A stretch of 41,501 bases of DNA from an uncultured Anaerolineales bacterium (lineage in GTDB: Bacteria; Chloroflexota; Anaerolineae; UBA3071), in contig CBDURC010000002.1 of NCBI GenBank assembly GCA_965369635.1, positions 1 through 41,501 on the forward strand. The letters are read 5' to 3'. Below are positions 7,185 to 34,373 of this stretch, piece after piece (position 1 is the stretch's first letter; every line of letters starts with the position of its first letter). The translations under genes were made by a program, and so were the position numbers. The notes below the pieces were generated by a model that saw nothing but the letters and a program-made list of their open reading frames with translations, did not search any database and was not told where the DNA came from.

Positions 7185-7994
7185 ATGAGCTTCATCAGAG
7201 GTCTTCGTACCAAGGCAGATCAGGTCACGCTGGAAGCTGACAAGATGCTTCGCATCAATCGCAAACGTAGTGAAATCGGTCAGCTTCGCAAGAGCATTTC
7301 GCAACTCATCACGCAATTGGGCAACACTGCCTACGGCCTGCATAACCAGGGCCAGACCCTTGCGCCTGAGTTGGCGCAGGTATGCCACCAGATTGATAAC
7401 CTGTACGCTGATATCCAGCGGATGGAGCAGGAAATCGAGCAGATCAGACGGGAAGCATTGCCCACCCAACCCATAGCATCAGCAGAGCGCTGTCACGTCT
7501 GCAGCGCCGCATTGCCCCAGGCAGCCACCTTCTGCCCGAGTTGCGGCAGCCCCCGGCCCAAACCGCAGCCTACCATCACCTGCAAGAACTGTGGCAGTAG
7601 CCTGCCGGCTGATGCCAGTTTCTGTGCTAACTGCGGCCAGCCCGTGGCGCTCTCTGGCCCGGAATCCGAAGACGTTGAGACACTCCCACCCAGCGAGCTG
7701 CCCAAGAGTGAGGCTATTCTGTGTTCCTCTTGCCGGACGGAAATCCCACTCCAGGCCACCTTCTGTCCCGTCTGCGACCATCCTGTTGCGATCCCTGGCT
7801 CGCAACTCGAAAGCGCGGAGACAGGCCCACCCATCGAACCGCCCAAGGCTGAGGCCACTCTGTGTTCCTCCTGCCAGGCGGAAATCCTGCTCCAAGCCAC
7901 CTTCTGCCCTGTGTGCGGTACTCCGGTGGACAGCGGTCCATCGTCGGAAGAGATGGTTGAGGAAGAAACTGTCGCAGACGAGGACGAGCCGTAG
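7185..7994 (+). CDS. Soluble coiled-coil protein with four tandem zinc ribbons and an acidic tail
   Basis: 269 aa with no TM segment. The N-terminal ~95 aa are heptad-like (EIGQLRKSISQLITQL...IQRMEQEIEQIRRE). Four ribbons follow: CHVCSAALPQAATFCPSCG, CKNCGSSLPADASFCANCG, CSSCRTEIPLQATFCPVCD, CSSCQAEILLQATFCPVCG. C-terminus is EEMVEEETVADEDEP. Confidence 0.8.
   Translation: MSFIRGLRTKADQVTLEADKMLRINRKRSEIGQLRKSISQLITQLGNTAYGLHNQGQTLAPELAQVCHQIDNLYADIQRMEQEIEQIRREALPTQPIASAERCHVCSAALPQAATFCPSCGSPRPKPQPTITCKNCGSSLPADASFCANCGQPVALSGPESEDVETLPPSELPKSEAILCSSCRTEIPLQATFCPVCDHPVAIPGSQLESAETGPPIEPPKAEATLCSSCQAEILLQATFCPVCGTPVDSGPSSEEMVEEETVADEDEP
7677..7958 (+). repeat. 141-nt (47-codon) tandem duplication encoding ribbon units 3 and 4
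   Basis: Copy 1 (7677-7817, gagacactcccaccc...) and copy 2 (7818-7958, gagacaggcccaccc...) align colinearly at roughly 80% identity by eye. Confidence 0.7.
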
Positions 7995-8047
7995 AACTCG
8001 GCCAAACCACTCTTCCTGCAATCGAATAATCACGGGAGTATGCCAGT

Positions 8048-9721
8048 ATGCCTATAAACTGCCCACACTGTGATTTTGAGAATCATGAAGACGACCGTTT
8101 CTGTGTGGAATGCGGTCAATCTCTCTATGAGCCTGTGGCAGCACCAGCGTTGGAGCGGCCTCGCCGCCGCAGACGCTGTCCCTGGTTCCTCCTCCTTGCC
8201 TTGATTCTCCTGGTCGGCGCAGCCGCTGCTGTTCACTTCGACCTCGTTCCACTACCTTCGCCAATCGCTAGCCTGTTTGGGCAAAAGGCCCCGGATTTCC
8301 CAGATGTAGAGATCGTTGGCACGGGGGAGCCTTTCCTGGTACTGCAAGCAGCTGCCGATAGCGACTTGGAGGTAATCGTCACCGACGTTGTGGGCAACTA
8401 CATTGCCACAATTGGCCCAAACAATGGCGTAGACTCTGCCCGGTTCGTCTTCTATGATCCTGAGTACGCAGCTTGGTCAACTGCTCCTGTGCCGCAGATT
8501 TCCGGTGCTTCGGCTTGGGCCTGGCCTCGCGGCAGGTCCGCTCTGGTCGCCCTGCACGCACCAGAGGGGTGGGACCTGCTGCGCTACGATGCTTCCATCG
8601 GGGAGATAAGGGAGATCGTGCAGGCTGCTGAATACCTGCAGGTCTCCGGTCACGTGAAACACGACAGGTTCCTGTTGGTCTATTCCCAGGACGGGGAGTG
8701 GACGCTCGTAGGTGGAGACCCAGACGAAGAAGAGGCCATCGAATTTCTGGATCGAGCCGAGTCCATCACGGAATCCGTCATATCCAGCGATGGCAGGTAC
8801 GTGGCGTTTCTCACCGATGATCTCTACGTCGCCAGCACCGAAGGTCGGCGCACCTATCGTCAGCCAGGCGAGTACCAATCACTGGTCTATGCTCCCGATG
8901 GCCGTTACCTCTTCTACTCCAGTGGTCATCAGCTCATTCGAGCCGACGCCGACGGCCGCAACGCCCGCATCATCGCCGAGGTGGGGCGCAATGATCGCTT
9001 GTGGCCATTCAGTGTGGGCCAAGCCCAGCTCGCTGCTCTGCAGACCATCGGCGATAGCTACGACGTACGCGTCATGACCCTTGATGGCAGGAGCAGTACG
9101 CGTCTTGGCCGATCGGATGCCTCCTATTCGGCTCGCTATCTGCCTGGGCAACAGGGGCTGTTGATTGTCCAGGGCTCCGGCCCAACCTGGAGCGTGGAGC
9201 TAACCGACCCCGCCGGCGAGGGACGTCGCGATTTGGCGCGTGACGTTCAGGGTTTCGCCGTCCACCCGCTGCGGGACGGTCGACATATCGCCCTTGCCTA
9301 CCAGCAGGACAATCGTTGGCAGCTGATGCTCTACGACACGCGCGAGGACGAGCAGCAAGGCTTGGAGAGAGACCTGACCCAATTGTGGATTCTGGCGACG
9401 AACGAACGACATCTTGTCTACAGTGCCCAGTTCGAGGACGATTGGTCATTGCTGGCAGTGGATCTGCGTAACAAGGAAACGAGCGAGTTAGATTCCGGCT
9501 CACTCGGGGGCTATCCCATTGCCTTCTTCAGTATAGATGGAAAAGAGGTCATCTATGAGGCCCGCGAGGAGACAGTGGCGGAATTTGTCCTTGATGAAGA
9601 TGGTACTACCAACACGGTGTACCATATTCTGGGTGGCGTGTATGCTGTTGACCTGGAAGACCTCGCGCCGCGTCCCGTCTACGAGGGCGCCAACCTGCTG
9701 GCGGCTTCGCTGTCCCGCTAG
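8048..9721 (+). CDS. N-terminal zinc ribbon - TM - PD40/TolB-like beta-propeller ectodomain protein
   Basis: 557 aa. Ribbon at residues 5-23 (CPHCDFENHEDDRFCVECG), then RPRRRRRC plus TM FLLLALILLVGAAAAV. Blade-like repeats follow: SSDGRYVAF, YAPDGRYLFYSS, RDGRHIALAY, SIDGKEVIYEA. Confidence 0.75.
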   Translation: MPINCPHCDFENHEDDRFCVECGQSLYEPVAAPALERPRRRRRCPWFLLLALILLVGAAAAVHFDLVPLPSPIASLFGQKAPDFPDVEIVGTGEPFLVLQAAADSDLEVIVTDVVGNYIATIGPNNGVDSARFVFYDPEYAAWSTAPVPQISGASAWAWPRGRSALVALHAPEGWDLLRYDASIGEIREIVQAAEYLQVSGHVKHDRFLLVYSQDGEWTLVGGDPDEEEAIEFLDRAESITESVISSDGRYVAFLTDDLYVASTEGRRTYRQPGEYQSLVYAPDGRYLFYSSGHQLIRADADGRNARIIAEVGRNDRLWPFSVGQAQLAALQTIGDSYDVRVMTLDGRSSTRLGRSDASYSARYLPGQQGLLIVQGSGPTWSVELTDPAGEGRRDLARDVQGFAVHPLRDGRHIALAYQQDNRWQLMLYDTREDEQQGLERDLTQLWILATNERHLVYSAQFEDDWSLLAVDLRNKETSELDSGSLGGYPIAFFSIDGKEVIYEAREETVAEFVLDEDGTTNTVYHILGGVYAVDLEDLAPRPVYEGANLLAASLSR

Positions 9722-9749: not shown

Positions 9750-12038
9750 ATGAAGCACACAAACAGACGGCTACTCACTGCTTTGAGCCTCCTCCTCGTT
9801 CTGTTTCAGGCTGTCGGTGCCCATGCTGGCGAGGAAACCTGGACAACAGACTCGTTGAGGGGATTCGACGTTCGGTCCATCATCGTTGATCCACAATCGC
9901 CAGCGCGCCTGTACGCTTTTGCGCCAGGGGTTACTATAGCCAGCGTTGACGGCGGCACCGAATGGGCGCCAAGTGGTGCTCTCCCTCTGGGGGGGCTGAC
10001 GCCCGGACAGTTCGAGATCGATCCCTTGACACCTGGTATCTTCTACGCGGTTCGTTCTGGTCAGCTCTGGCGCAGCCTTGATGCCGGTGCAACCTGGGCA
10101 GAGATCGCTCCTGGGTTGCTCAGTGACGTGCGCTGGTTCAGCCTGGACCAGGCTAATCCCAATATCATTTGGGCATTCACTGGCCAGGACACACTGCGTT
10201 CACTGGATGGGGGGCAGAATTGGGCTTCTGCCGGCTTGCCGGTGAGAGGACTGGCCACCAGCTTTGCTCAATCTGGTAGCGCGGTCTACATCGCAGTAGA
10301 GCAGCAAGGGCTGTTCCGCAGCGACGATGGCGGCAAGACCTGGCTGATCATCGGCGCAGAACTGCCAGCTTCTGCCTATTTGTTCGATTTGGCGATGGAT
10401 AATGCAGTTTCAGATACGGTTTATCTTTCCAGTGACCAGGGCCCTTTTCGCAGCAGCGATCGAGGTAGCACGTGGCAGCCGATTGCTCCCGAGCAGGGAA
10501 GCTGGCAACGGGCCAGACTGGCCATAACCGGATCGGGCAAAGGTGATATCCTTCTGATCTCACGAGATCGCTTTACGGCCATCAGCAGCGACGGCGGAGC
10601 GACCTGGCAGATATCTGAAGAACCCATTTTCGATGGCTACATACGGCAGGTGGTGATAGATCCGCAAGTCCGTGAGGTTGTCTACGTGCTGGCGAATACT
10701 CTATGGAAAAGCCAGGACGGAGGCGCCAACTGGAGCTTGCCATCCGTTCCTTCTTTGAACCTGCAACTGCTCGCCGCGCATCCCCGGCAAACTGACCGGC
10801 TCTATGCCAACAGCGGGTCAGGAATCCAACGCTCGGAAGACGGCGGCCGTAGTTGGCAGGCCGCTCCCGGATTTCCTGAGGGGCAAGGTGTGAGCGCTAT
10901 CGCTTGGGCGCCGGGCGACGCCAACGTTGCCTATGCCAGCTATGGACGTGGACTCTTGCGCAGCGCAGATGGTGGCGACCGAGAGTGGGTGGCGACCTTG
11001 CTGCCGGAAACGGCACTGGTTCAGGCTATTCGCGTCTCGCCACACGATCCCAACCTCGTCTTCATCGTGAGCAATGGGCGGGTGCTGTTCAGCAGTTCAG
11101 GTGGAGAGGCATGGGGTGTGCTACCCCTGGCCGCCGGAATCGCCGCCACAGATCTGGCCTTGTCGCATGAGGATGCCGGTGTGATCTACGTCGCCGCCGG
11201 CAGCAGTGTTTACAAGAGCGAAGATGAGGGTCTGACCTGGACAATGCAAGCTGACGGGCTTCCACATGTCTGGCGTTTGCTGATCAATCCTGTTAGCCCA
11301 CAACATCTGCTTGTGCTGGCCGGTGGCAGCGTATTGTCTAGTCAGGATGGCGGTCAGAGTTGGGTGCCGGTGCAGGGCCTGGAAGATCACCACAATGTGC
11401 GTGGCATTCTGCGCCATCCAGGAAGCCCGGCCATTCTCTACGCCTATGAGCTACAGCAGATCTATATCAGTCCGAATGGAGGCCAAACCTGGCTACCGAT
11501 GGGTGGAACCTTGCCGGGTCAGATTCAGAGTGTGGTCGCTGGTGGGGGCGATCTGCGCTATGTGCTGGCCATTATCAACAACAACACCGTCTGGCGCTAC
11601 AGCTTCCACGGCCTGCCGCCCACTCCCACACCGACGCCGACAGTGACGCCGACGGTGACGCCGACGCCAACCGTCACACCGACTCCTGCTCCTACCAGCA
11701 CGCCGACGCCCACGCCGCGGCCCAAGCTCGCCATCCGCCCCGCGGCCACGCCCATTGATCTCGATCCACCACAACGGCTGACCAAGGGCACAGGTGGAGA
11801 CCGCGGCGGCCGCGGCTGGCTGCCGTGGGTGGTCGGAATAGCGGCTGCTGCTGTGGTTGGACTGGTTGCCTTCTGGTGGTACCGTCGCCTCAGGACCGCT
11901 GCTCTACCTGTGCCTTATTCGCCGCCTCCACCAGCAGCAAAGCAGCCCCAGTTCATCGTTTGCTGCAAAGGGCATACCAGCCCACCGGGATCGCGCTTCT
12001 GCATGACCTGTGGTGAAGCGTTCGAAAAGGAGTCCTGA
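9750..12038 (+). CDS. Secreted BNR/Sortilin-Vps10 (Ycf48-like) double-propeller protein with PT linker, TM anchor and C-terminal cytoplasmic zinc ribbon
   Basis: 762 aa. Signal peptide LLVLFQAVGAHA. About 13 repeats of S-x-D-G-G-x-[TS]-W (RSLDGGQNW, RSDDGGKTW, ISSDGGATW, KSQDGGANW, RSEDGGRSW...). PT linker, TM WVVGIAAAAVVGLVAFWWY, then the tail CCKGHTSPPGSRFCMTCG. Confidence 0.8.
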   Translation: MKHTNRRLLTALSLLLVLFQAVGAHAGEETWTTDSLRGFDVRSIIVDPQSPARLYAFAPGVTIASVDGGTEWAPSGALPLGGLTPGQFEIDPLTPGIFYAVRSGQLWRSLDAGATWAEIAPGLLSDVRWFSLDQANPNIIWAFTGQDTLRSLDGGQNWASAGLPVRGLATSFAQSGSAVYIAVEQQGLFRSDDGGKTWLIIGAELPASAYLFDLAMDNAVSDTVYLSSDQGPFRSSDRGSTWQPIAPEQGSWQRARLAITGSGKGDILLISRDRFTAISSDGGATWQISEEPIFDGYIRQVVIDPQVREVVYVLANTLWKSQDGGANWSLPSVPSLNLQLLAAHPRQTDRLYANSGSGIQRSEDGGRSWQAAPGFPEGQGVSAIAWAPGDANVAYASYGRGLLRSADGGDREWVATLLPETALVQAIRVSPHDPNLVFIVSNGRVLFSSSGGEAWGVLPLAAGIAATDLALSHEDAGVIYVAAGSSVYKSEDEGLTWTMQADGLPHVWRLLINPVSPQHLLVLAGGSVLSSQDGGQSWVPVQGLEDHHNVRGILRHPGSPAILYAYELQQIYISPNGGQTWLPMGGTLPGQIQSVVAGGGDLRYVLAIINNNTVWRYSFHGLPPTPTPTPTVTPTVTPTPTVTPTPAPTSTPTPTPRPKLAIRPAATPIDLDPPQRLTKGTGGDRGGRGWLPWVVGIAAAAVVGLVAFWWYRRLRTAALPVPYSPPPPAAKQPQFIVCCKGHTSPPGSRFCMTCGEAFEKES
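11614..11723 (+). repeat. Pro/Thr-rich low-complexity linker coding repeat
   Basis: Encodes PPTPTPTPTVTPTVTPTPTVTPTPAPTSTPTPTPRP. Built from iterated acgccgac/gtgacgccgac units. Confidence 0.8.
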
Positions 12039-12040
12039 TC

Positions 12041-12817
12041 ATGCATACCCACTCGATTTCCGCCAAGCACCATCTGACCCACGCCAGCTTTCGCCGCTTG
12101 CTTTGCCTGCTCGCCGTTAGCATTGGCTTTGTGCTGGTGCTTGCCGGATGTGGCGATATAGAACAGGATGTGACGTTCTATGCCAATGAAAAATGGAAAG
12201 CGGAGTCTCGCGTCGGGTTGTCGCCGGAGGAACTTGCTATGGCTGGTGGTCAGGCAGAGATAGAGGCGTCTCTGAACGAGGGGCAGGCCACCGCCGAGGC
12301 ACAAGAGCTTGATTTTCGATGGAAGCGCCAGAAGGGCGACGACGACCGCCTGTATTACATCATCACTATGGCGGGAGAGGGATACGACCTGCTCAATCAG
12401 AACGCGTTTGGCGACACCGCCACGATTGACACGATCACGTACGATGGTCAAGATGCTGTCCAGTTCGACTTTGCATCACCCTATGACCTGTCTCACTACG
12501 AGTTGACTCTCCATGCTGGTGAGGTGCTCGATACCAATGGCAGTCAGGAGGGCAAGGGAGAAGTCCACTGGTCTGGTGCTGGTAAAAGGATGTACGCGGT
12601 TTTTGAGCCTCGAAGTGGACCAAACTGGCTGCTACTGGTTCTGGGATTGATCATGCTGGGTGCCATGGCTGTTGCTGGCTTTTTCTTCATCCGATCGTGG
12701 CAACACCAGCGAGGCCAGAAGACCGCCACAGCGTCGGCAAACTTCTGTCACAAATGTGGCACCAAGCTGGAGGGAGCAGGTAGATTCTGCCCGTCTTGTG
12801 GAGCCAGGCGAGCTTAA
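12041..12817 (+). CDS. Lipoprotein-type ectodomain - TM - C-terminal zinc ribbon protein
   Basis: 258 aa. Lipobox VLAGC, a ~165-aa unknown ectodomain, TM LLLVLGLIMLGAMAVAGFFFI, and the C-terminal ribbon CHKCGTKLEGAGRFCPSCG. AAGGAG RBS. Starts 2 nt after the preceding stop. Confidence 0.75.
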   Translation: MHTHSISAKHHLTHASFRRLLCLLAVSIGFVLVLAGCGDIEQDVTFYANEKWKAESRVGLSPEELAMAGGQAEIEASLNEGQATAEAQELDFRWKRQKGDDDRLYYIITMAGEGYDLLNQNAFGDTATIDTITYDGQDAVQFDFASPYDLSHYELTLHAGEVLDTNGSQEGKGEVHWSGAGKRMYAVFEPRSGPNWLLLVLGLIMLGAMAVAGFFFIRSWQHQRGQKTATASANFCHKCGTKLEGAGRFCPSCGARRA

Positions 12818-12875: not shown

Positions 12876-13814
12876 ATGCGTTGTCCTCACTGCAATGCTT
12901 CAGATGCCGGCAGCGGCAAGTTCTGCATTCACTGCGGCATGGCGCTGCCGCTTCAACCTGTGTCAACGACGCAACAGCCTGATCAAGCCGGTTCCCTCAT
13001 GTCCCGCGAAGACACCTCGCCGCAACCGCTTGCCACCAGACGAGATGTCGAGCTTCCCCAGAAGCGGCCAGCAACCGAGAGACCGGTTGCCCCTATGGGA
13101 CCAACTACCACCGCGCCGGCTAGCATTTGGGGGCCGTTCGCTGGCTACGGTACGCGAGGCCGCCACGTTGCCTGGTTGCTCGATGACTTGGGCCACCGCG
13201 CCGAAGATCTGCGTCAGGCAGTAACAGCGCGCTTTCAGCAGCGACGCATCCCTGGTGCAGATGTGATACCACGCATTCTGACTGCAAAGGGTGTGTTGGT
13301 CGAGCAACGCCCCTACTACCTCGTTCAGCGGGGCCGGGCCACGGCAGGCCTCTACCTGGCCAGGTTCGGTGAGGACATCTACATCTCCCAGGTCACCTAT
13401 TTCAAGAGTCCTGTCAGCACGGTGCGCATTCTTATTGCCGCCGCCTTGATTGCTTTCATAATTGCCTACCCTGCGATGCTCTCCTCAGCCGCAGATGACG
13501 TGTCAGCCGATCTGTTCGGTGGCGTCTACGGCGCGGGCGAGCTAGCCAGAATGCTGTGCTGCCTCGGGCCTTTCTACCTGGTGAGCTTTCTGGTCTTGAC
13601 ATTGGTTGCCCTGATGAGCCTGTGGAAGTTCATCACCGAGAAGGACCTCCTGGCGCCACTACGAGTACAGCCCAACGAGTTCGACCAGGACGATCTGATC
13701 GCCCTGGAGAAAGCTGTCGAGCAGACCGTGCGCGAGTCGCTGGACGTCGTGGGCATTGATCGCCAGCTCATGCCGCCGGCAGCGCGCTACGGCTTACGAG
13801 GACGCATCATTTGA
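12876..13814 (+). CDS. N-terminal zinc ribbon - cytoplasmic domain - 2-3 TM membrane protein, partner of the downstream ATPase
   Basis: Start set at ATG 12876 (GAGGGAGG RBS). The ribbon MRCPHCNASDAGSGKFCIHCG begins at residue 3. A ~120-aa domain follows (HVAWLLDDLGHRAEDLRQAV...YYLVQRGRATAGLYLARFGEDIYISQV). Hydrophobic segments are ILIAAALIAFIIAYPAML and LCCLGPFYLVSFLVLTLVALMSLW. The stop TGA overlaps the next start. Confidence 0.7.
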   Translation: MRCPHCNASDAGSGKFCIHCGMALPLQPVSTTQQPDQAGSLMSREDTSPQPLATRRDVELPQKRPATERPVAPMGPTTTAPASIWGPFAGYGTRGRHVAWLLDDLGHRAEDLRQAVTARFQQRRIPGADVIPRILTAKGVLVEQRPYYLVQRGRATAGLYLARFGEDIYISQVTYFKSPVSTVRILIAAALIAFIIAYPAMLSSAADDVSADLFGGVYGAGELARMLCCLGPFYLVSFLVLTLVALMSLWKFITEKDLLAPLRVQPNEFDQDDLIALEKAVEQTVRESLDVVGIDRQLMPPAARYGLRGRII

Positions 13815-20143: not shown

Positions 20144-20154
20144 GGAGGAATCTG

Positions 20155-26236: not shown

Positions 26237-28027
26237 ATGTACTGCACTCTATGTGGAAAACGAAACGAAGACACCTCCAAGTTTTGCATGTACTGCGGTG
26301 CGGCCTTGCAGGCGCCACCCCGGCCTGCACCCCCGACGCCGCGGCCATCACGAACTTCTTCCGTCGCAATGGGGCCCTCCAGGCCAACTGGTCGAGGACG
26401 AGGCCCGCGACGCGCCCTGCTGATCATAAGCAGCTTGATAGGTGTGGTAATCCTGTTGGCTGCCGCTGCCTGGCTGGTTGGACGTCTCTGGCTGCGTCTG
26501 GGGGCTAACGAAACGGCGAAGATGATGCCGGCCGACACCGATCTCTACGTGATCTTCAACCCCGGACTGCGCCAGTTGATCCGCCTGAACGACCTATCCC
26601 GGCTGCAAGTGTTGGGCGCACCGGTGGAAGCCCTGGGCTTGGCTGATGCGTTGGGGATCAGCGAGAGCATCAACGAATTAGGCATTGACTTCCAGACGGA
26701 CGTCAGGCCCTGGATCGGGCTGGAAGCAGCAGTCAGCGTCATGGATATCGAAGACGCATCGCAAGGCGTTGTCGTTGCTGCCGCAACTCGCAGCCGGAAA
26801 GCATCGGACAAGTTCCTCCAGAAGCTGCGGGATCAAATGGAAGCCGGTGGTTCTTCTTTCGATGAGACGACGTACCGGCGTATTCCGATCGCATTCGAGG
26901 TTGTGGGGTCCGAGGAGAAGACAGCCTTTGCGACGCTCAATCGTTTTGTGGTTGTGGCCGACAGCCTGGCGGCAATGCAGCAAGTCATTGACGCCACCCA
27001 GGGCGAGGCACCCAACCTTGGAGAGAGCTCCAACTACCGCGACCTCATGCGCCATCTTCCGAGTAACCGCTCTGGGGCCATCTATGTGCCACAGGCTCTG
27101 ACACGGGAATTGGGTGAGGTACTCGGTCTTGGCGTTTTCGAGGGATATCGAGGTCTGGCCATAGCGCTCTCGCTGGAAGCTAACCGCGCTTGCCTCGATA
27201 TCGTGCAGGAGTTCGGCACGGACACCCTGAGCCGGGCAGAGATCGACTACATCCGTCGTTCAGGCCATAGCCCACAAATCACCAGGGCGATTCCCGATGA
27301 TGCACTGTTTGTGCTGACCGGCAAGGACTTGCCAACTGGCTGGCGTATGTCTCTGGGAAGTATACCAGGCTTCTCCCCAGAAGGCATTGATGACATCGTG
27401 GAAGAAATCCGTTACGATACTGGCGTTGACCTGGAAGAGGACATCTTCAGTTGGATGACCGGTGAATACGCGCTGGTAGCCCTGGGCGATCCAGATGACC
27501 CCTTGGCTCTGGATATGCCCATTTCCTTGCTTTTTGTTGCTGAAGTACCCGGTCGAGACCAGCGCCAAGCTGAACGTGCCGTCAATGATCTATTCGAAGC
27601 ATTGGCCCTGAACAGCGACGCGACCCTGGAGACCCGCACGTTGAACGGTATTGAGATGCATACTTTCAGCGACCGTTGGTCAGACTTCTCTCTGGGCTAC
27701 GGTATGCTCGATGAACACCTTGTGGTTGGCGTCTCGCTGTCCACGCTGAGGGCTGCGGCTCGCGCTAAAGACAACCCCCTGGCCGAGTATCCTACCTTTC
27801 AGCAAAGCGTGCGCCCGTTGCCCAAAAACAACCACGGTGTCTTTTATCTCAACGTTCGCGACGTTGTGCGTCTTCTCAAACGCTCTATGAGCGACTACGA
27901 GCGTCAGGATTTCGAGAAAGAGGTCGAACCCTATCTCGACCCGTTGGTCGCCGTCAGCGGTACAAGCCTGCCTGCTGACAAGAACGGATTTCAGCGGAGT
28001 GTGATCTACCTGCACCTGGCCCAATAA
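26237..28027 (+). CDS. Zinc ribbon - TM - large uncharacterised ectodomain protein (possibly DUF3352-like, unverified)
   Basis: 596 aa. The ribbon MYCTLCGKRNEDTSKFCMYCG starts at residue 3. Pro/Arg-rich spacer, TM ALLIISSLIGVVILLAAAAWLVG, then a ~500-aa ectodomain with no motif I can name with confidence. Confidence 0.7.
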   Translation: MYCTLCGKRNEDTSKFCMYCGAALQAPPRPAPPTPRPSRTSSVAMGPSRPTGRGRGPRRALLIISSLIGVVILLAAAAWLVGRLWLRLGANETAKMMPADTDLYVIFNPGLRQLIRLNDLSRLQVLGAPVEALGLADALGISESINELGIDFQTDVRPWIGLEAAVSVMDIEDASQGVVVAAATRSRKASDKFLQKLRDQMEAGGSSFDETTYRRIPIAFEVVGSEEKTAFATLNRFVVVADSLAAMQQVIDATQGEAPNLGESSNYRDLMRHLPSNRSGAIYVPQALTRELGEVLGLGVFEGYRGLAIALSLEANRACLDIVQEFGTDTLSRAEIDYIRRSGHSPQITRAIPDDALFVLTGKDLPTGWRMSLGSIPGFSPEGIDDIVEEIRYDTGVDLEEDIFSWMTGEYALVALGDPDDPLALDMPISLLFVAEVPGRDQRQAERAVNDLFEALALNSDATLETRTLNGIEMHTFSDRWSDFSLGYGMLDEHLVVGVSLSTLRAAARAKDNPLAEYPTFQQSVRPLPKNNHGVFYLNVRDVVRLLKRSMSDYERQDFEKEVEPYLDPLVAVSGTSLPADKNGFQRSVIYLHLAQ

Positions 28028-28052: not shown

Positions 28053-29954
28053 ATGGCCAAGCCCAAATTCTGTCCCTACTGCGGCGAACCAACCGGCTCT
28101 CAACTCGGCAACTTCTGCATGGCCTGTGGCAAGCCCCTGAGCAAGACACCAGAACCAGCACCTAGGAAAACCGCTACGGCAGCGGCCGCCCCGCAGCTTC
28201 GGGTGCCGAAGCCTGCAAAGGTGTCAAAACCCCGCCTGCCGCGCTCTCTATCGGTTCGCCGTTTCCGCATCTTTGTTCCCACCACCCTATTTGGCATCTT
28301 CGATGTCATCGCAGTGATTGCCGCTGTCATCGTGCTGGCTGTCACGCAGATCCGTCCCCCATCCAGCAGTTGCCAGCCCCTGACCCCACCTGAGGATGCC
28401 CGTGTAGCTGATAGTCGCGATACCATATCCGGCAAGCTCAGCGGCTTTGTGATTCTGCAAGCCGGCCAAACCTACGACTTGACAGGAGCGGTGACCGTTC
28501 TCGAGGAGGCCACACTGCAGATTGAAGCGGGGGCGCGTCTACACTTTGATCGGGGTGCCCGGCTCGACGTCAACGGTCTGATCCACGCCTGCGGCAACCG
28601 CAGCAATCCGATCATATTCACCTCCAACCGCGACGGCGCGACCAGCGGGCCGGTCGCCAAGGCAGGCGATTGGCAGGGGATTCGCATCCTCGACTCCAGC
28701 AGTGATTCCTCAATTCTGAATCACGTCCAGATACGCTTTGCCGGTAGCGATAACTACCCCGCCATCTATCTGGATCAGGCCTCGCCCACGCTGGCCGACG
28801 TGCGAATCACCGACAGCGCCGCCTTTCCTATCAGCGCCGACGTCATTTCAGAGCCCAAGTTCGCCGGCGACGTGATCCTGGATAACAACGCTGTCAAAGG
28901 CATGGAAGTGCGCGGCGGTGAGCTGTACGGCAGCACGACGTGGGAAGGCAGCGAAGTTGTGCGTGTAATCAGCGGCAACATAACCATCAAGGATAGCGGT
29001 CGTCTGACCATCAAGCCAGGCCTGGTGCTGAAGTTCGGCGACAACCGCGGGCTAAACGTCGAGGGCACGCTGATCGCCGTCGGCGGGCGGGGTGCGCCCA
29101 ACCTCAACGATGGCAAGAGCATCGTCTTCACCGGGTTGCGAGATGACGCAGCGGCAGGCGATACCGATCTGCACACAGCCGAGCCTGATGCCGGCGACTG
29201 GCGGGGCATCACCTTCCGCGAGAGTAACCGCAATACCAGTCTGCGCCGGGCCTTCGTACGCTACGCCGGTCAGGATGGCCGCGCCGCTATCCATCTGGAG
29301 AATGCCGATCCAGAGCTGTCGGACGTTGCTATCGAGCACAACGCCGGCTATGCTATCAGCAGCGACGCCGTTTCCTCACCCGAGATCAGCAACCTGATTC
29401 TTAGCGACAATGGACTGGGCAGCGGTTGGGAAATCCGAGGCGGAACGCTGTCCGAGCGGGCAACCTATCGCTGGCAGGCTACTCGTGGGCTGGTGCGAGT
29501 GGTTAGCGGCAACCTGGCCGTGGGCCGAGAGGCTACCTTGGTCATTGAAGAGGGTGTCCAAGTGCGCTTTGCTCTGGGTACAGGGCTGAACGTTGACGGC
29601 GCCCTGGAGATTGCCGGCGGCGAAGATCGCCCGGTCGTGATGAGTTCGCTTCGCGATGATGCCGACGACGCCGGTGGCGACGTAGATGGCAGCGCAGCGA
29701 CCTCGGCACCGGGCGATTGGCGAGGTGTGACCTTCGGCCCCAACAGCAATGATCGGCGCAGCGCTGTGCGCCATACCTTGATCCGCTACGCCGAAAGCGG
29801 CCTGAGATTCGACGGCGTGGGGCCTGCGGTAGAGAACGTGACCGTGGAGCAATCCAGAGGCTCCCCATTACGCTGTGACGGCAACGCCCGACCATCTTTC
29901 AGCAACATCACCCTGTTCGACAATGCGGAGAGTGCTACCTGTGACATCCCTTAA
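28053..29954 (+). CDS. Zinc ribbon - TM - right-handed parallel beta-helix repeat ectodomain protein
   Basis: 633 aa with a GGAGG RBS. Ribbon FCPYCGEPTGSQLGNFCMACG. TM LFGIFDVIAVIAAVIVLAV. Three iterations of a ~190-aa module carry GDWQGIRI/GDWRGITF/GDWRGVTF and IRFAGSD/VRYAGQDG/IRYAESG. Confidence 0.75.
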   Translation: MAKPKFCPYCGEPTGSQLGNFCMACGKPLSKTPEPAPRKTATAAAAPQLRVPKPAKVSKPRLPRSLSVRRFRIFVPTTLFGIFDVIAVIAAVIVLAVTQIRPPSSSCQPLTPPEDARVADSRDTISGKLSGFVILQAGQTYDLTGAVTVLEEATLQIEAGARLHFDRGARLDVNGLIHACGNRSNPIIFTSNRDGATSGPVAKAGDWQGIRILDSSSDSSILNHVQIRFAGSDNYPAIYLDQASPTLADVRITDSAAFPISADVISEPKFAGDVILDNNAVKGMEVRGGELYGSTTWEGSEVVRVISGNITIKDSGRLTIKPGLVLKFGDNRGLNVEGTLIAVGGRGAPNLNDGKSIVFTGLRDDAAAGDTDLHTAEPDAGDWRGITFRESNRNTSLRRAFVRYAGQDGRAAIHLENADPELSDVAIEHNAGYAISSDAVSSPEISNLILSDNGLGSGWEIRGGTLSERATYRWQATRGLVRVVSGNLAVGREATLVIEEGVQVRFALGTGLNVDGALEIAGGEDRPVVMSSLRDDADDAGGDVDGSAATSAPGDWRGVTFGPNSNDRRSAVRHTLIRYAESGLRFDGVGPAVENVTVEQSRGSPLRCDGNARPSFSNITLFDNAESATCDIP

Positions 29955-32181
29955 ACGTAACTGCCCGGCCTGCGGCCAGCCCAATCCACCCAACGCCCGA
30001 TTCTGTATCCGGTGCGGTCAGCCTCTGGCAGAGCCACCGCGCCTGTCGGCCAGGGAGACTCCGGAAGCCGCTGATGGCAACGTGGTCGTGCCCCAGTCTG
30101 ATCAGAAGGCTATCGTCATTGGACGTGATCCTCGGCTCAGCCAACGGGGAGGCTATTTCCTCAACCATCCTGCGCTGTCGTTCCACCACGCTCGGATCGA
30201 ACGCCGCGGCAGCGGTTGGTTCGTTGTGGATCTGAACAGCGAGAAGGGCACGTTTGTTGACTACACCGCCGTGCCGCCCGGCCCAGAAGGTTTGCCCATC
30301 GGCCCCGATAGTGTGGTATGGATCGCTCCCTACGCCTTTCGGGTGCGCAGCCGGGGCGATCGGAGTCCGCTGGAGCAAGCGCACATGCAATTGGACGCTG
30401 TGGATCTGAAGCGCACGGTGCCCGGTGGCAGGCGCGGCGAGTCGATCACCATCCTGGATACGCGAGGCGTGCCCCTTTCCTTTCGACCCGGCGAATTCAT
30501 CGCCCTGGTGGGTGGCAGCGGCACGGGCAAGACCACGCTGATGAAGGCGATCAACGGACTGGCGCCGGCACAAGAGGGTCAGGTGCTGATTGACGGGTCT
30601 CCCATCATCGACGCCGGCAATGCTCGTCAGTTCGCTGCACTCTACAGTATCATCGGCTATGTGCCGCAGGATGACGTGATGTATCGCGATCTGACTGCCA
30701 ACGAGGTACTCACCTACACTGCTCGCCTGCGTTTGGCCAGCCTGAAGCGGGACGAGATGAACCGAGTGATCGAGCAGACGCTGGTCGCAGTAGAGTTGAG
30801 CGAGCATGCCCACAAGCGCGTCGTTCAACTCAGCGGCGGCCAGCGCAAGCGGGTTAACATCGCCATGGAGCTAATCGCCCAACCGCGGCTGCTTTTCCTG
30901 GATGAGCCTACCTCTGGCCTCGATCCGGGCCTCGACTTGGAAGTGATGATGCTCCTGCGGCGATGGGCCAGGGGCCAGGTAGTGGCTGGTGACGGCGGCC
31001 AGACATCAGCAGCCGATCCCAAGACCATCATCCTGGTAACCCACGCCACCGAGAACATCGAGCTGTGTGACTATATCGCCTTCATGGCAACCGGCGGGCA
31101 GTTGGCCTATTTCGGTCCACCGGCGGAGGCAAAACAGTTCTTCTGCCCCTCACGACCGGCTGAGACCGTCACCTATTCTGAAATCTACCGCCTGGTAGCC
31201 AGCACACCAGCAGACGCTGAAACCGGGGCAGTCACCTGGCCCGAGCGCTTCCGGCAGAGTGACTTTTTCCAGCGCTACGTCATCAGCCGCGCGCCAGCGG
31301 CTGTATCGGATACCAAGATAGCACCGGCAGCAGGCGCTGAGCCGCCAACACCCTGGTCTCGACGATTCAGCGGCCAGCGCCTGCGCAGTGCTATGGGCCA
31401 ACTCCGCATCCTGGTCGGCCGTTACAGCCGTTTGGTCTCCAGGGATCGGCTCAACGCCGGCATGTTGTTGTTTCAAGCGCCGCTGACTGCGATGTTATTG
31501 GGGGCTGTCTCTTCGCCCAATGCCCTGCGACCGGCTGGCGCATTAGATGCTGAGAAGGTGCTGTTCATCCTGGCCTGCGCCGCCACCTGGCTGGGGATCA
31601 TCAATGGCACCAAGGAAATCGTCAAGGAGCAGGATATTTACCAGCGCGAGCGGCTGTATGGTCTGGGGGCGGTGCCCTACGTGCTGTCCAAGATCTCTGT
31701 GCTCGGCATCATAGCCTTGCTGCAGACAGTACTCCTGGTGCTGTTTGTGGCGCTGCAATTCGAGCTGCCCGCAGGAGGGGTCTTTCTGCCCCTGTCTGCC
31801 GAGATGTTCATTACCCTCTCTTTGAGCATGATCGCCGGTCTATCGCTGGGTCTGCTGATCTCGGCCTATGCGCGAACGTCTGACCTGGCGACGTCGCTCA
31901 TGTTCCTGGCGCTGATCGTGCAGATCATCTTCTCTGGCCTGCTCTTCGACGCCAGCGGGCTGGCGCAGATACCATCTCTGCTGACGACTAGCCGCTGGGG
32001 ATTGGAGGCGCTGGGTGCCAGTGCCAACCTCAACAGTCTGCTGGTTAGTGCCATTCCCGGTTACGATTGGGACGCAGGATATGCCAGCAGTGGACCAAAC
32101 CTTGTCATTCATTGGTTCATCCTGGTGACATTCAGTGCCGTTCTGATTGCTCTCACCTGCCGCCGCCAGGCACGCAAGTAG
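29941..32181 (+). CDS. Zinc ribbon - FHA - ABC ATPase - ABC-2 permease fusion (ABCG/White-type half transporter)
   Basis: Ribbon NCPACGQPNPPNARFCIRCG. FHA-like IVIGRDP...HHARIERRGSGWFVVDLNSEKGTFVD. Walker A GGSGTGKTT (30511-30537). Signature LSGGQRKRV. Walker B LLFLDEPTSGLD. Six C-terminal TM helices. Start is uncertain: GTG 29941, ATG 29923 or ATG 29875. All three overlap the previous gene's end (29954). Confidence 0.8.
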   Translation: MTSLKRNCPACGQPNPPNARFCIRCGQPLAEPPRLSARETPEAADGNVVVPQSDQKAIVIGRDPRLSQRGGYFLNHPALSFHHARIERRGSGWFVVDLNSEKGTFVDYTAVPPGPEGLPIGPDSVVWIAPYAFRVRSRGDRSPLEQAHMQLDAVDLKRTVPGGRRGESITILDTRGVPLSFRPGEFIALVGGSGTGKTTLMKAINGLAPAQEGQVLIDGSPIIDAGNARQFAALYSIIGYVPQDDVMYRDLTANEVLTYTARLRLASLKRDEMNRVIEQTLVAVELSEHAHKRVVQLSGGQRKRVNIAMELIAQPRLLFLDEPTSGLDPGLDLEVMMLLRRWARGQVVAGDGGQTSAADPKTIILVTHATENIELCDYIAFMATGGQLAYFGPPAEAKQFFCPSRPAETVTYSEIYRLVASTPADAETGAVTWPERFRQSDFFQRYVISRAPAAVSDTKIAPAAGAEPPTPWSRRFSGQRLRSAMGQLRILVGRYSRLVSRDRLNAGMLLFQAPLTAMLLGAVSSPNALRPAGALDAEKVLFILACAATWLGIINGTKEIVKEQDIYQRERLYGLGAVPYVLSKISVLGIIALLQTVLLVLFVALQFELPAGGVFLPLSAEMFITLSLSMIAGLSLGLLISAYARTSDLATSLMFLALIVQIIFSGLLFDASGLAQIPSLLTTSRWGLEALGASANLNSLLVSAIPGYDWDAGYASSGPNLVIHWFILVTFSAVLIALTCRRQARK

Positions 32182-32195
32182 CAACGGAGTTTTCT

Positions 32196-34373
32196 GTGCA
32201 TTGCCCAAACTGTAACACATCATTGCAGCCAAACGCTCGCTTTTGCGGTACCTGTGGACATCGACTCGATCAACCGCAGTGTCCGAATTGTCAAGCACCA
32301 GTCAATCTCAGCCATCGCTTCTGCGCCCGATGTGGCTGGGACCTGCAGCAAGCGCAGCCACCAGTATCTGAACCGGTCAGCACTGACACAGAAGCGGTTC
32401 AAGACAAGCCAGCACCAGAGGGCAGACGGCGGCGGTGGGGCATCCTGATCCTGGCCGCAGTTGTCATCGTGGTGCTGGCGGCCGCGGCCTGGTACGTGGT
32501 GCGGACTCTCCAGCCTTCCCAGGAGGTTGGCACGGCGGTTCTGGTTGAAACACCTGTCCTAACGCCTGCTGAGCAAGTCCCGCCGCCAGTAGAGGAGACT
32601 GAGGAAGTTGAGGAGAGTGAAGAACTGCAAGAGCCTCAGTCTTTGTGGCAAGCAGTACAAGATGCTGTGGAAGCCGGTGACACGCTCCAGGCCGTTCAGT
32701 TGCTGCAGCAACTGCGCTCCGATCATCCCAACTTCGAACCGCAAGCGGTTGGCGACCAACTCTACACCCTGTGCCGTGCCTGGTACGATGACTCGGCCGA
32801 AAGCATATCCCCAGAGGTGCTGGCCGCGCTCGATTGTCTCGCCCGGGTGCGCCCAGAGGATCCGGCGGTTGCACAGCAAGCCTGGTGGAAGGAACTTGTC
32901 GAGGCAAAAGAGCATCTGCTGGCCGGGGAAGCGGCCCAGGCCATTGACTTGCTAGAGTCAATGATCGCCGCAGCGCCGTCCGATTTCGCCCAGGGACGTC
33001 ACAAAGGCTTCCTCTACGAGGCCTATTTGCAGCAAGGAGATGCCGCGTGTGCGGCAGAAGACTTTGAGGCGGCCAGAGCCAGCTACATCAAAGCGCGCAC
33101 ACTGGATCCAACGCGCCTGGAAGCTGGCAACCGCATCGCCAGTTGCCAGCCCCCCACGCCGACTCCAACGATCACGCCGGCACCGACGTTGACGCCTACA
33201 CCGTTGCCACCAGGAGCAATGGTCATCTCCTACACCCAGGAGGAGCGGTTGAACTTGCGCATGGGACCGGGACTGAACTATCCTATCGTTGGACGGGCTG
33301 AGGCAGGTGCTGTGTTTACTGCTACAGGTCGGAGCGAGGATGCGGGGTGGCTAAAGGGCCAGCGGCCTGGCGGTGGCGAGGTCTGGATGTCCGGTGAGGT
33401 CGTCGAGGCCAACTATCCCTTTGTGGCTGCGCCGGTCGTAGAGATACCATTGCCGCCAAGTGAGTTTGTGATTGCAGATTCGGTGAGGGATTTCAGCACC
33501 AAGCAAGGCGAGAACGGCTGGTACTATCTGGCCTCTAGGTCGCCGGGAAGCCTTGACTACGACTGGATGCCTGCCGAGGGGGGATGGTACCGATGGACCA
33601 AGTCGGGCCGCAGCCCCGAAATGCGGCTCAGTGCCGAGGGCAGCTATCCTAGCTGGAACTCGGACACCATGCGGCTCTGGAGCAGCATGTACGAGGGTAC
33701 CGTCCGCATTGAGGGCCAGGCACACAAAGAGGTGGGCGCTGGGCGTGGTGGCAACGGTGTAGCGCTACGCGTTGTCTTGCTCAGTACCGCCGAGAATGGT
33801 GACACCACGCTTGACCAGGAGCTATGGTCTGATACCCTTGGGGCTTATGATACCAGCGGTTACAAGTTTACCGTGGACCCCTTCGAGATACGGCCAGGGG
33901 GCGGGATCTACTTTGTCACCTCCGCCTCGGGAGACGATCGGAAGGACAACACTGTTTTCACGAGTCGTATTATTCTCGTGAACGAAGGGGGTGTGGTTCT
34001 GACCCCAACGCCAACCCCGGAACCCACACCAGTTCCCACTCCAAGGCCGCCGCTGTGCTTCGAACCGCGTCAGCGTCATTTTGAGGATCACAAAGGTTGT
34101 TGCGGTGAAGTGGTTGGTATCGCCTACACCAACCAGGGGCGGCTCAGTTGGGGACAGGTTCACATTGAAGGCCCACCTGCCACCAACCAATACCGTATGG
34201 ACTTCGCCATCAACAAGGACGGCGGCTACGAAATAACGGCACTGAACATGTTTGCTGATTACACGATTTGGCTCAAAGGTGCACGCATTCGCAGCAGCAA
34301 ATTCGTAGTCCACTACGAGGATCTTGGCAAGGTCCGCGCAGTGGTCGACTTCTATCAGGTATCTTGCAGGTAG
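32196..34373 (+). CDS. Double zinc ribbon - TM - acidic linker - TPR-like helical region - PT linker - SH3b - large C-terminal ectodomain protein
   Basis: Start set at GTG 32196 (ACGGAG RBS) because the 32067 extension overlaps the ABC gene. Ribbons CPNCNTSLQPNARFCGTCG and CPNCQAPVNLSHRFCARCG. RRRRW plus TM GILILAAVVIVVLAAAAWYVV. EETEEVEESEELQE. SH3b-like LNLRMGPGLNYPIVGRAEAGAVFTATGRSEDAGWLKG. Confidence 0.75.
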   Translation: MHCPNCNTSLQPNARFCGTCGHRLDQPQCPNCQAPVNLSHRFCARCGWDLQQAQPPVSEPVSTDTEAVQDKPAPEGRRRRWGILILAAVVIVVLAAAAWYVVRTLQPSQEVGTAVLVETPVLTPAEQVPPPVEETEEVEESEELQEPQSLWQAVQDAVEAGDTLQAVQLLQQLRSDHPNFEPQAVGDQLYTLCRAWYDDSAESISPEVLAALDCLARVRPEDPAVAQQAWWKELVEAKEHLLAGEAAQAIDLLESMIAAAPSDFAQGRHKGFLYEAYLQQGDAACAAEDFEAARASYIKARTLDPTRLEAGNRIASCQPPTPTPTITPAPTLTPTPLPPGAMVISYTQEERLNLRMGPGLNYPIVGRAEAGAVFTATGRSEDAGWLKGQRPGGGEVWMSGEVVEANYPFVAAPVVEIPLPPSEFVIADSVRDFSTKQGENGWYYLASRSPGSLDYDWMPAEGGWYRWTKSGRSPEMRLSAEGSYPSWNSDTMRLWSSMYEGTVRIEGQAHKEVGAGRGGNGVALRVVLLSTAENGDTTLDQELWSDTLGAYDTSGYKFTVDPFEIRPGGGIYFVTSASGDDRKDNTVFTSRIILVNEGGVVLTPTPTPEPTPVPTPRPPLCFEPRQRHFEDHKGCCGEVVGIAYTNQGRLSWGQVHIEGPPATNQYRMDFAINKDGGYEITALNMFADYTIWLKGARIRSSKFVVHYEDLGKVRAVVDFYQVSCR
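33150..33212 (+). repeat. Pro/Thr linker coding region
   Basis: Encodes PPTPTPTITPAPTLTPTPLPP. Confidence 0.75.
34001..34051 (+). repeat. Pro/Thr linker coding region
   Basis: Encodes TPTPTPEPTPVPTPRPP. Confidence 0.75.

Follow-up and report, generated by a model that had tools for sequence, protein, structure and literature searches.

A zinc-ribbon-rich cluster of envelope genes around a VirB4/HerA-like ATPase in Chloroflexota

We analysed a 41,501-nucleotide stretch of DNA (the window) from an uncultured Anaerolineales bacterium (assembly GCA_965369635.1, contig CBDURC010000002.1, positions 1 to 41,501, forward strand) and describe within it a cluster of 18 genes, here g1 to g18, 13 of which encode a short zinc ribbon. 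At its centre lies a three-gene core, g4-g5-g6, comprising two ribbon-bearing membrane proteins and a P-loop ATPase, and the window holds an enlarged form of a conserved system that is seemingly specific to Chloroflexota.

Gene layout and zinc ribbons

All 18 genes are intact and lie on the + strand between positions 7185 and 34373, as read from the open reading frame (ORF) listing and translations (Table 1). Start codons were refined through Shine-Dalgarno context and orthologue alignment for g5 (12876), g7 (16542), g17 (29923) and g18 (32196). With these starts, 13 of the 17 gene junctions measure −4 to 58 nt and four wider gaps of 178, 210, 211 and 254 nt precede g8, g9, g10 and g15, bearing out the co-directional run of closely spaced, intact genes reported in a first-pass annotation made from the letters alone. 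The putative promoter upstream of g1, called from sequence only, is the sole perfect sigma-70 site within positions 6000–21000 and stands 269 nt 5′ of g1; the leader between its consensus and the g1 start codon (~269 nt) matched no Rfam family.

A six-frame scan with the strict pattern C-x2-C-x(6-14)-[FYW]-C-x2-C-G found 15 ribbons; all fall on the + strand, from 7491 to 32336, and the 14 kb of window flanks yielded none. A looser four-cysteine (Cys4) pattern adds the fourth ribbon of g1 and the first ribbon of g8, giving 17, and a degenerate C-terminal ribbon in g3 (CCKGH...RFCMTCG), read off the translation, raises the count to 18 ribbons with the form CX2C-X10/11-CX2C over 13 genes (g1, g2, g3, g4, g5, g7, g8, g12, g13, g15, g16, g17 and g18), the same gene count as in the first-pass annotation. 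Ribbon profile models (PF13240 Zn_Ribbon_1 or PF12773 DZR) match g1, g8, g15, g17 and g18 above the Pfam gathering cut-off and g2, g4, g7, g12 and g13 with E-values that are significant but under it. No ribbon model matched g3, g5 or g16 at E ≤ 0.01; g5 and g16 fit the Cys4 pattern, g3 fits its degenerate form only, and many g5 orthologues carry precomputed PF13240 matches. Among the named families of NCBIfam, only TcaA and the '4-Cys prefix' kinase domain matched the ribbons, both below threshold.

The N-terminal ribbons begin at residues 2–8 and are followed by one membrane helix 20–60 residues on and then by an ectodomain. Genes g3 and g4 run in the order signal peptide or lipobox, ectodomain, membrane helix and C-terminal ribbon, and their ribbons thus sit at the C-terminus where the C-terminus is the cytoplasmic end. 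Every ribbon is predicted by hydropathy analysis to be cytoplasmic, in agreement with the earlier proposal of a shared cytoplasmic module. The attached domains proved as disparate as first described, with Pfam confirming PD40-like, BNR/Sortilin, beta-helix, SH3_3, TPR and DUF3352 domains and an FHA, ABC_tran and ABC2_membrane combination, and it likewise confirms the other members named at the outset, a DUF87/HerA ATPase, NAGPA, Peptidase_C39_2 and Tox-GHH with a YbjN-like partner.

Comparison across genomes places the ribbons within their gene families. With the exception of the repeats inside g1, each window ribbon resembles the orthologous ribbon of another genome more closely than it does the window's other ribbons; the tags have therefore long belonged to their gene families, the suggestion that the local copies form one clade does not hold, and a recently spread local repeat is ruled out. 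Nor does the motif stand as a locus-specific tag, as the consensus M-x-C-P-x-C-G-x7-A-[RK]-F-C-x2-C-G is the general PF13240 (and DZR) consensus.

Most window ribbons precede disordered Pro/Arg-rich linkers. This feature fits a reading in which the Cys4 ribbons are thiol or zinc switches and the envelope proteins respond jointly to oxidative or metal stress, as with Mycobacterium tuberculosis Ruc: Cys4 zinc sites can be redox switches, Ruc has a zinc ribbon and a disordered tail (PMC7448276), and sensitivity to cumene hydroperoxide is seen in an llmg_0524 mutant of Lactococcus lactis (PMC4628341). However, the L. lactis zinc site itself withstood oxidants (PMC4628341), the cluster encodes no redox enzyme, and switching of this kind leaves the link to the ATPase and to kinase and FHA proteins unexplained, making a redox or zinc-sensing role highly improbable in our judgement.

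Table 1. Positions and predicted features of the g1–g18 cluster and its borders
Feature	Positions	Strand	Description
Left border	5264-7185		Degraded; truncated DJ-1/PfpI gene 6284-6736; family-less ORF 5748-6269
Promoter-like site (putative)	6888..6916	+	Perfect sigma-70 consensus: TTGACA, 17 nt spacer, TATAAT, extended −10 TG; 12/12 matches
Leader	6917-7184		
g1	7185..7994	+	Soluble; N-terminal coiled coil, four zinc ribbons, acidic tail; Pfam DZR 3.6e-26, Zn_Ribbon_1 9e-21
g2	8048..9721	+	N-terminal ribbon, one membrane helix, PD40-like beta-propeller ectodomain
g3	9750..12038	+	Signal peptide, BNR/Sortilin-type propeller, Pro/Thr linker, membrane helix, degenerate C-terminal ribbon
g4 (core)	12041..12817	+	Lipoprotein-type signal (LAGC), ~170-aa family-less ectodomain, membrane helix, C-terminal ribbon
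g5 (core)	12876..13814	+	N-terminal ribbon, disordered linker, cytoplasmic alpha+beta domain, membrane hairpin, conserved C-terminal helix
g6 (core)	13811..16504	+	897-aa P-loop ATPase, HerA/FtsK/VirB4 superfamily; 350-aa alpha/beta N-domain; C-terminal Cys cluster
g6 Cys cluster	16199-16414	+	Residues 797-868
g7	16542..16910	+	Small; N-terminal ribbon, linker, C-terminal membrane helix; homologues in L001, L006
g8	17089..17604	+	Small membrane protein, DUF5683/DUF6677-like N-terminus; two cytoplasmic ribbons (UPF0547, Zn_Ribbon_1)
g9	17815..19437	+	Secreted NAGPA phosphodiester glycosidase (Pfam 1.5e-19), C-terminal membrane anchor, no ribbon
g10	19649..20143	+	Tox-GHH (HNH/EndoVII-type) nuclease toxin domain, Pfam 8e-12; no ribbon
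g11	20140..20580	+	YbjN-like, Pfam 5e-7; overlaps g10 and g12 at start/stop
g12	20577..21854	+	N-terminal ribbon, membrane helix, Pro/Thr linker, SH3_3, C-terminal domain common to g13 (21264-21854)
g13	21888..23510	+	N-terminal ribbon, membrane helix, Pro/Thr linker, unannotated ectodomain, C-terminal domain common to g12 (22992-23510)
g14	23565..25982	+	Membrane-anchored; PD40 propeller, CarboxypepD_reg, Big_7, C39-like peptidase (Peptidase_C39_2); no ribbon; homologues in 8 loci
g15	26237..28027	+	N-terminal ribbon (Zn_Ribbon_1 8e-8), membrane helix, DUF3352 ectodomain (1.7e-63)
g16	28053..29954	+	N-terminal ribbon, membrane helix, right-handed beta-helix ectodomain
g17	29923..32181	+	Single chain: ribbon, FHA, ABC ATPase, ABC-2 permease
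g18	32196..34373	+	Two N-terminal ribbons (DZR 1.3e-11), membrane helix, TPR-like region, SH3_3 (2e-7), unannotated C-terminal ectodomain; GTG start
Cluster-to-tRNA interval	34373-35298		0.9 kb without intact gene; ORF 34268-35134 without Pfam match
tRNA-Glu(ttc)	35298-35371	−	Only RNA match in the window (Rfam)
Promoter-like sites	35383-35479		Strong; around tRNA-Glu
Right border	40437-41400	−	SufC-like ABC ATPase broken into two frames

The ATPase core and its neighbourhood in relatives

The ATPase g6 contains one P-loop domain and no membrane helix, presumably works as a hexamer, and has a Walker A motif (GSGKT) and an acidic Walker B motif (EEAH) that are invariant among homologues. Pfam matches DUF87 at 3.5e-6 and HerA_C and FtsK_SpoIIIE weakly, without any Pfam VirB4 signature (CagE_TrbE_VirB, AAA_10 or TraC), and NCBIfam gives only a partial, sub-threshold match to CedD over the ATPase motif region. 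The best Foldseek matches of an AlphaFold2 (AF2) model of g6 (predicted local distance difference test score (pLDDT) 72) are full-length TrwK/VirB4 of plasmid R388 (8rtd and 7o42; E 4e-11 to 1e-7 over ~850 aligned columns, at TM-scores of only 0.3–0.46), followed by DndH-C, the VirB4 C-domain, HerA and TrwB. The label of HerA/FtsK ATPase first given to g6 is thus right as to the DUF87/HerA match in Pfam, but the fold is nearer VirB4 than HerA or FtsK. In the C-terminal cysteine cluster of g6, C797-x2-C800-x3-C804 and C868 are invariant and C850 occurs in at least 90% of homologues; CxxCxxxC is found in 119 of the 120 best-listed homologues. This cluster could form an Fe-S or zinc site, which would be unusual among HerA/VirB4-type ATPases. 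In 8 of the same 120 homologues, a ribbon is fused to the ATPase itself.

The stop codon of g5 (ending at 13814) overlaps the start of g6 (13811), and g5 is a dedicated membrane partner of g6, encoded just 5′ and translationally coupled to it. Its cytoplasmic alpha+beta domain has an invariant WGPFAG...R.RH..WL signature in the homologue alignment. None of the 264 homologues of g5 is informatively named, Pfam recognizes no domain apart from the ribbon, a 1.84-billion-protein library holds 369 clusters of the protein, and an AF2 model (pLDDT 73) gave no significant fold match in the PDB (Foldseek, no match at E ≤ 0.001); g5 constitutes a new family. The position and hairpin of g5 recall VirB3, but identity with VirB3 or any solved fold was rejected on the same Foldseek result. 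Homology with the partner proteins encoded 5′ of more distant ATPase homologues, in Streptomyces and Limisphaerales, could not be demonstrated, BLASTP giving E 0.06–0.13 and hhalign a probability below 1%. One protein of a representative library (P0271, 934 aa) joins a g3-like BNR propeller to the g5 core domain (residues 701–934); this is a genuine fusion or else a gene call that read through. The third core gene, g4, has no PDB sequence match; it was found in 24 related loci by ribbon-masked tblastn, nearly always just 5′ of g5.

More than 1654 homologues of g6 were found. The best 120 are all ~900 aa long and at least 49% identical, and such names as they have go no further than 'ATP-binding' or 'DUF87' proteins of Chloroflexota. 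Scanning a single genome for each GTDB species returned 425 ATPase relatives, led by a Caldilineales metagenome-assembled genome (75% identity) and followed by Anaerolineae, Ca. Amarolinea, Ardenticatenaceae, Promineifilum, Leptofilum, Longilinea and Thermoflexales, with distant relatives (31–39%) in Verrucomicrobiota, Planctomycetota, Symploca and Streptomyces. Identity stands at 72–75% in Caldilineales, 64–65% in a second group and ~50% in Anaerolineales and Promineifilum. Anaerolineae, Caldilineales, Ca. Amarolinea and Promineifilum are filamentous Chloroflexota lineages, and the system has so far been seen mainly there.

To count homologues per locus, we searched all fetched loci by tblastn with the 18 window proteins, ribbons masked. 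Gene g5 lies directly 5′ of g6 in 42 loci and always in that position, and homologues of other genes occur in 16 loci (g1), 8 (g3 and g14), 7 (g8 and g17) or 6 (g9, g12 and g16). Clustering of called proteins gave a similar picture, with the ATPase in 49 of 50 loci, g5 in 38, g4 in 22 and all others in at most 9. Relatives therefore do share a conserved neighbourhood, yet only g4-g5-g6 is near-universal and the remainder is a variable periphery, and the 27-kb cluster first treated as one unit holds up as a conserved core around which a variable set of ribbon-tagged proteins has gathered lineage by lineage.

Parts of this periphery recur together. In L005 (50% ATPase identity), a beta-helix protein, an FHA-ABC exporter, a DUF3352 protein and a multi-ribbon protein are encoded 3′ of g5-g6 in an order differing from that of the window. 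Two FHA-ABC homologues picked blind to context (L166 and L167; 48% and 42% identity) both have a g5-like gene with a ribbon and, 6–9 kb away, a DUF87 ATPase on their 5′ side, and each is preceded by a beta-helix gene; at least 15 of ~44 long contigs with g17 homologues equal in size contigs listed for ATPase or g5 homologues. Orthologues of g2 occupy the same position in L002, L006 and L007, g8 homologues lie 3′ of the ATPase in their seven loci, NAGPA genes do so in L001 and L002, and g15 is present in the L005 and L015 clusters. The beta-helix gene stands immediately 5′ of the FHA-ABC gene in L005, L166 and L167, and g16 and g17 homologues are close together in L022, L034 and L053; g16 and g17 thus form a module.

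Among 71 ribbon-bearing non-core neighbours we found FHA (7), PD40 (6), protein kinase (5), ABC exporter (4) and beta-helix (4) domains, and among 115 ribbon-free neighbours protein kinase (12), PD40 (6), BNR (5), LysM (3), C39-like peptidase (3), M14 peptidase (2), PP2C (2) and NAGPA (2). L004 and L166 add YkuD, GH3 and PG_binding_1, completing a set of envelope domains in or near the clusters that comprises NAGPA, C39-like peptidase, SH3b, LysM, PG_binding_1, Peptidase_M14, YkuD and GH3. In other genomes the peptidoglycan enzymes (M14 peptidases, LysM and YkuD) are mostly ribbon-free, and one CBM9/PG_binding_1 protein is ribbon-tagged. From these domain counts, the recurring themes are wall or surface-polymer chemistry and Ser/Thr-phosphate signalling.

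We measured ribbon density against an external background of 80 metagenome loci from presumed relatives (849 kb, mean GC 0.57), collected around homologues of the flanking nifS gene (57–82% identity). This background holds one strict ribbon, or 0.0012 per kb. The window cluster reaches 0.55 per kb and a set of 47 non-redundant ATPase loci from Chloroflexota (739 kb) 0.27 per kb, ~230–470 times the background. At the background rate 0.03 ribbons would be expected in 27.2 kb, and 15 were seen (Poisson P ~3e-35). Within relatives' ATPase loci, a ribbon is encoded by 143 of the 475 genes that share the strand of the ATPase and by none of the 154 on the opposite strand (Fisher P = 1e-20); loci of distant ATPase homologues outside Chloroflexota hold almost no ribbons. 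The ribbons are thus far from evenly spread; an even spread would have spoken against a link to this locus. The strand contrast and external background were used in place of a comparison inside and outside runs of + strand genes, which was dropped because crude gene calls broke the runs and left 30 ribbons 'outside'.

These densities bear on a rival reading, in which the ribbon is a generic cap that sets the topology or stability of bitopic proteins, the locus is an envelope operon island, and the ribbons have no common partner and no functional tie to the ATPase. The generic PF13240 consensus agrees with such a cap, as do the age and divergence of the ribbons within each gene family, the existence of lineages whose core lacks ribbons, and the occurrence of ribbon-membrane-ectodomain proteins in Firmicutes as well, with the first ribbon of g8 weakly matching the N-terminus of the NCBIfam TcaA model; the L. 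lactis Cys-zinc site is also very stable, and a stability role has been suggested for it (PMC4628341). A cap leaves unexplained, however, why ribbons occur on soluble cytoplasmic proteins (g1 with its four copies, ribbon-FHA and ribbon-kinase proteins) and on the cytoplasmic ATPase, and why 0 of 154 opposite-strand neighbours and one site per 849 kb of background carry them, and g9 and g14 are membrane-anchored in the same cluster yet ribbon-free. Enrichment near the ATPase, presence on soluble proteins, fusion to the ATPase and placement at the cytoplasmic end argue that the ribbons exceed topology caps, and we consider the cap reading unlikely, though with a substantial residual weight.

Two further observations concern more distant ATPases. 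Anaerolineae also have a second, paralogous DUF87 ATPase family (L083 3600–13800; L080 6782–12746) of 1045–1121 aa, with 36–38% identity confined to the ATPase domain. It too has ribbon proteins as neighbours, including DZR-kinase-RDD, ribbon-RDD and an HSP70-like protein; the theme of an ATPase embedded among ribbon proteins therefore recurs. Distant homologues of g6 itself (33–38% identity; L077 6581–13917 and other Streptomyces loci, and L056 9020–15519) keep an upstream partner of 310–370 aa and adjoin a protein kinase in Streptomyces and a vWA protein in Limisphaerales, with no ribbons.

Peripheral genes and cluster borders

Several peripheral genes have features beyond those in Table 1. 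The soluble g1 has no membrane helix and is a candidate cytoplasmic hub; a PspA-like identity of its coiled coil was rejected for want of Pfam support. The propeller of g3 matches Pfam Sortilin-Vps10 (5e-28) and BNR, and its L002 orthologue gives a weak Zn_Ribbon_1 match. The ~170-aa C-terminal ectodomain common to g12 and g13 is 30% identical between them (E 1e-16), with a conserved LLGCP...W motif. In g17, Pfam recognizes ABC_tran (4e-30), ABC2_membrane (7e-15), FHA (3e-9) and Zn_Ribbon_1 (1e-6); its nucleotide-binding domain is closest to ABCA/ABCG lipid exporters, and the FHA domain suggests that the exporter is likely regulated through phosphothreonine binding.

The 164-aa g10 protein has a charged, probably disordered N-terminus and no recognisable trafficking domain, signal peptide, ribbon or membrane helix. 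Its toxin domain and the adjoining small immunity-type gene g11, its likely immunity partner, together have the make-up of a polymorphic toxin/immunity pair. The pair lies at a variable spot 3′ of the ATPase, after the NAGPA or glycosidase-type gene, where toxin/immunity-like genes differ between genomes: Tox-GHH and YbjN in the window (19649–20580), LIM/DA1-like and YezG-like genes in L001 (15955–20728) and Imm33 in L006 (18880–19182).

Toxin-like genes at this shared position in three loci would suit a machine for secretion or toxin delivery, in which the VirB4-like ATPase powers protein or DNA translocation in a loosely type IV/VII-like manner, the toxin/immunity cassettes are cargo, and the tagged envelope proteins form channel, wall-piercing and regulatory parts. 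A VirB4-like fold with a hairpin membrane protein encoded just 5′, as VirB3 is for VirB4, and the presence of a C39-like peptidase point the same way. FHA and kinase regulators, typical of type VII secretion systems (T7SS), count for it too. Such regulators are also typical of type VI systems (PMC12607579). Against secretion, none of the 18 genes matches a VirB6, VirB8, VirD4, relaxase, WXG100 or pilin family in Pfam, g5 has no detectable VirB3 homology, g10 has neither trafficking domain nor ribbon, and toxin-like genes occur in a minority of loci, leaving this reading improbable.

The flanks had been described as full of pseudogenes, which is true in part. Both borders are degraded (Table 1), with a truncated DJ-1/PfpI gene on the left and a split ABC ATPase on the right, and the flanks also contain two stretches without an intact gene, but the liv transporter genes, nifS and two permeases are intact. 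The tRNA-Glu gene lies immediately 3′ of the cluster, beyond an interval without an intact gene, and strong promoter-like sites surround it. GC at third codon positions (GC3) is lower in the cluster genes (0.57–0.76) than in the flanking liv, nifS and permease genes (0.77–0.86), a difference that may stem from differing expression, from faster evolution or from a foreign origin.

The tRNA gene, the degraded borders, the lower GC3, the toxin/immunity pair and an AbiEii gene in L001 would all fit a horizontally acquired 27-kb mobile or defence island whose gene content derives from conflict systems and not from housekeeping envelope biology. The window holds no intact integrase or transposase, however, no PADLOC system was matched, ATPase identity declines in step with taxonomy and synteny is kept across classes, and of all the readings weighed here we give the island the least credence.

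Proposed assembly and comparison with known systems

The reading we favour, tentatively and at somewhat under an even chance, is an ATPase-centred complex for envelope remodelling or export that uses the ribbons for assembly. The ribbons would serve as co-assembly modules that gather all parts, in some species the ATPase too, at one membrane site, and the hub may be g1 or the cytoplasmic face of g5/g6. There the ectodomains would build a layer of cell wall or surface glycopolymer or remodel it; g17, as an ABC-2 exporter, would provide a lipid-linked or polymeric substrate under the control of its FHA domain; kinases and FHA proteins would gate the process by signalling; and g6, to judge by its modelled fold, could power assembly or translocation. 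The first-pass annotation had cast the ribbon as a handle for docking, sorting or regulation that the ATPase, the four-ribbon protein and the FHA-ABC exporter may service. A link between ribbon and ATPase is supported by the ribbon-ATPase fusions (8/120) and by the tag on g5, but because the ATPase can carry the tag itself, the tag is better seen as a module for co-localisation or co-assembly than as a handle acted on by the ATPase. A bolder extension, possible but doubtful, is that the PF13240 ribbon serves as a modular address label in the cytoplasm, a counterpart in bacteria of dockerin or of effector-associated adaptors, that plugs envelope enzymes, an exporter, kinases and FHA proteins into a hub of the VirB4-like ATPase, g5 and the g1 scaffold, defining an unrecognised class of ATPase-driven envelope machine.

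Several points weigh against ribbon-driven assembly around the ATPase. The ribbons carry no locus-specific signature beyond the generic consensus. At least five ribbons occur in only 14 of the 27 Chloroflexota loci of at least 15 kb; Thermoflexales (L023) and L014 carry g5-g6 without any ribbon; and L025, L043 and L058 have ribbons on g4 and/or g5 only. From these last two groups it follows that the core works without a ribbon-rich periphery. The AF2 model of g6 is of moderate quality, with a disordered stretch at 649–756, and the role suggested for g6 is drawn from its fold only. The background contigs were picked by NifS similarity, their taxonomy being presumed only, and gene calls in the relatives' loci are crude.

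Few unexplained features are as common in Chloroflexota, Firmicutes and archaea as small zinc ribbons at those ends of membrane proteins that face the cytoplasm. In this system such a tag is more than 200-fold concentrated near one conserved ATPase, sometimes fused to it and present on a four-ribbon protein, making the idea of an assembly tag directly testable. The core also adds a new VirB4/HerA-family ATPase with a new partner family in a phylum with poorly understood envelope and filament biology, some carriers of which are relevant to wastewater treatment (Ca. Amarolinea, Ca. Promineofilum) and most of which are uncultured. Were the ribbons mere caps, the conserved g4-g5-g6 core would still be an uncharacterised machine.

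Among known systems, VirB4/TrwK gives the best full-length structural match to g6, with a large N-domain followed by the ATPase domain and a size of ~800–900 aa, and the membrane-hairpin partner immediately 5′ with a stop/start overlap is reminiscent of VirB3-VirB4. Unlike VirB4, g6 gives only a weak DUF87 match in place of a Pfam VirB4 signature and has an extra C-terminal Cys-cluster domain; unlike VirB3, g5 is ~310 aa long and combines a ribbon with a novel cytoplasmic domain, and Pfam finds VirB3 among the 18 genes no more than it finds the other type IV secretion system (T4SS) families listed above. HerA-NurA and HerA defence systems differ in that HerA structures rank below VirB4 for g6 and that NurA, Sir2 and DUF4297 are absent, and a search for known anti-phage defence (PADLOC-DB 2.0) matched no system, giving only weak HerA and mad8 ATPase matches and generic coiled-coil matches. 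The EssC/EccC ATPases of T7SS have FHA domains, three FtsK-like domains and a membrane anchor, unlike the single P-loop domain and membrane-free chain of g6, and neither WXG100 nor EssB occurs among the 18 genes (Pfam). The original remark that no described system has this composition thus stood up against T4SS, HerA-NurA, T7SS and PADLOC. Literature on zinc ribbons with Chloroflexi, FtsK, VirB4 or DUF87, and on DUF3352, yielded no description of the system either, within a coverage short of all journals. The system is undescribed as a whole, though every individual domain class in it is known, and its function is something we infer only.

Individual components have closer analogues. Llmg_0524 and Llmg_0526, both L. 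lactis membrane proteins, have an N-terminal CX2CX10CX2C motif shown to bind zinc, are encoded in one operon and affect cell-wall integrity (lysozyme resistance) (PMC4628341). With a Cys4 motif on membrane proteins, a common operon and a wall phenotype, they are the nearest experimental analogues of the tag, but theirs is a three-gene Firmicutes operon without an ATPase, FHA/kinase proteins or a large ectodomain set. In Bacillus subtilis, two ribbon proteins, YdjG and YdjL, are encoded together with PspA (PMC11237479). M. tuberculosis Rv1747 is an FHA-ABC exporter regulated by PknF (PMC3138270, PMC5549992); like g17 it has an FHA head, ABC ATPase and ABC-2 permease in the same order, and Ser/Thr kinases occur in clusters related to ours. 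Rv1747 has two FHA domains and no ribbon (PMC3138270), whereas in g17 a ribbon replaces the first FHA, and the 18 genes of the cluster include no adjoining kinase gene as for Rv1747 (Pfam). Sulfolobus ArnA-ArnB pairs a zinc-finger-FHA protein with a vWA partner under kinase control (PMC6509490). Its zinc-finger/ribbon-FHA architecture recurs in L004 and in the head of g17, and phosphorylation control is a further likeness; the g15 ribbon region matches the ArnA N-terminus weakly and non-significantly (E 0.15), and ArnA is an archaeal soluble regulator of archaellum expression with neither tagged ectodomain proteins nor an ATPase core.

Effector-associated domains in NTPase-centred conflict systems of multicellular bacteria, common in filamentous phyla, were described by Kaur et al. 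in 2020 (PMC7159879); the present system is not described there. Those systems have STAND, GTPase or other NTPase cores and cytoplasmic effectors, in contrast to the VirB4/HerA-like core and mostly extracytoplasmic envelope domains found here. In both, one small adaptor is common to a core NTPase and its varied neighbours, and ribbons, kinases, vWA domains and membrane segments recur.

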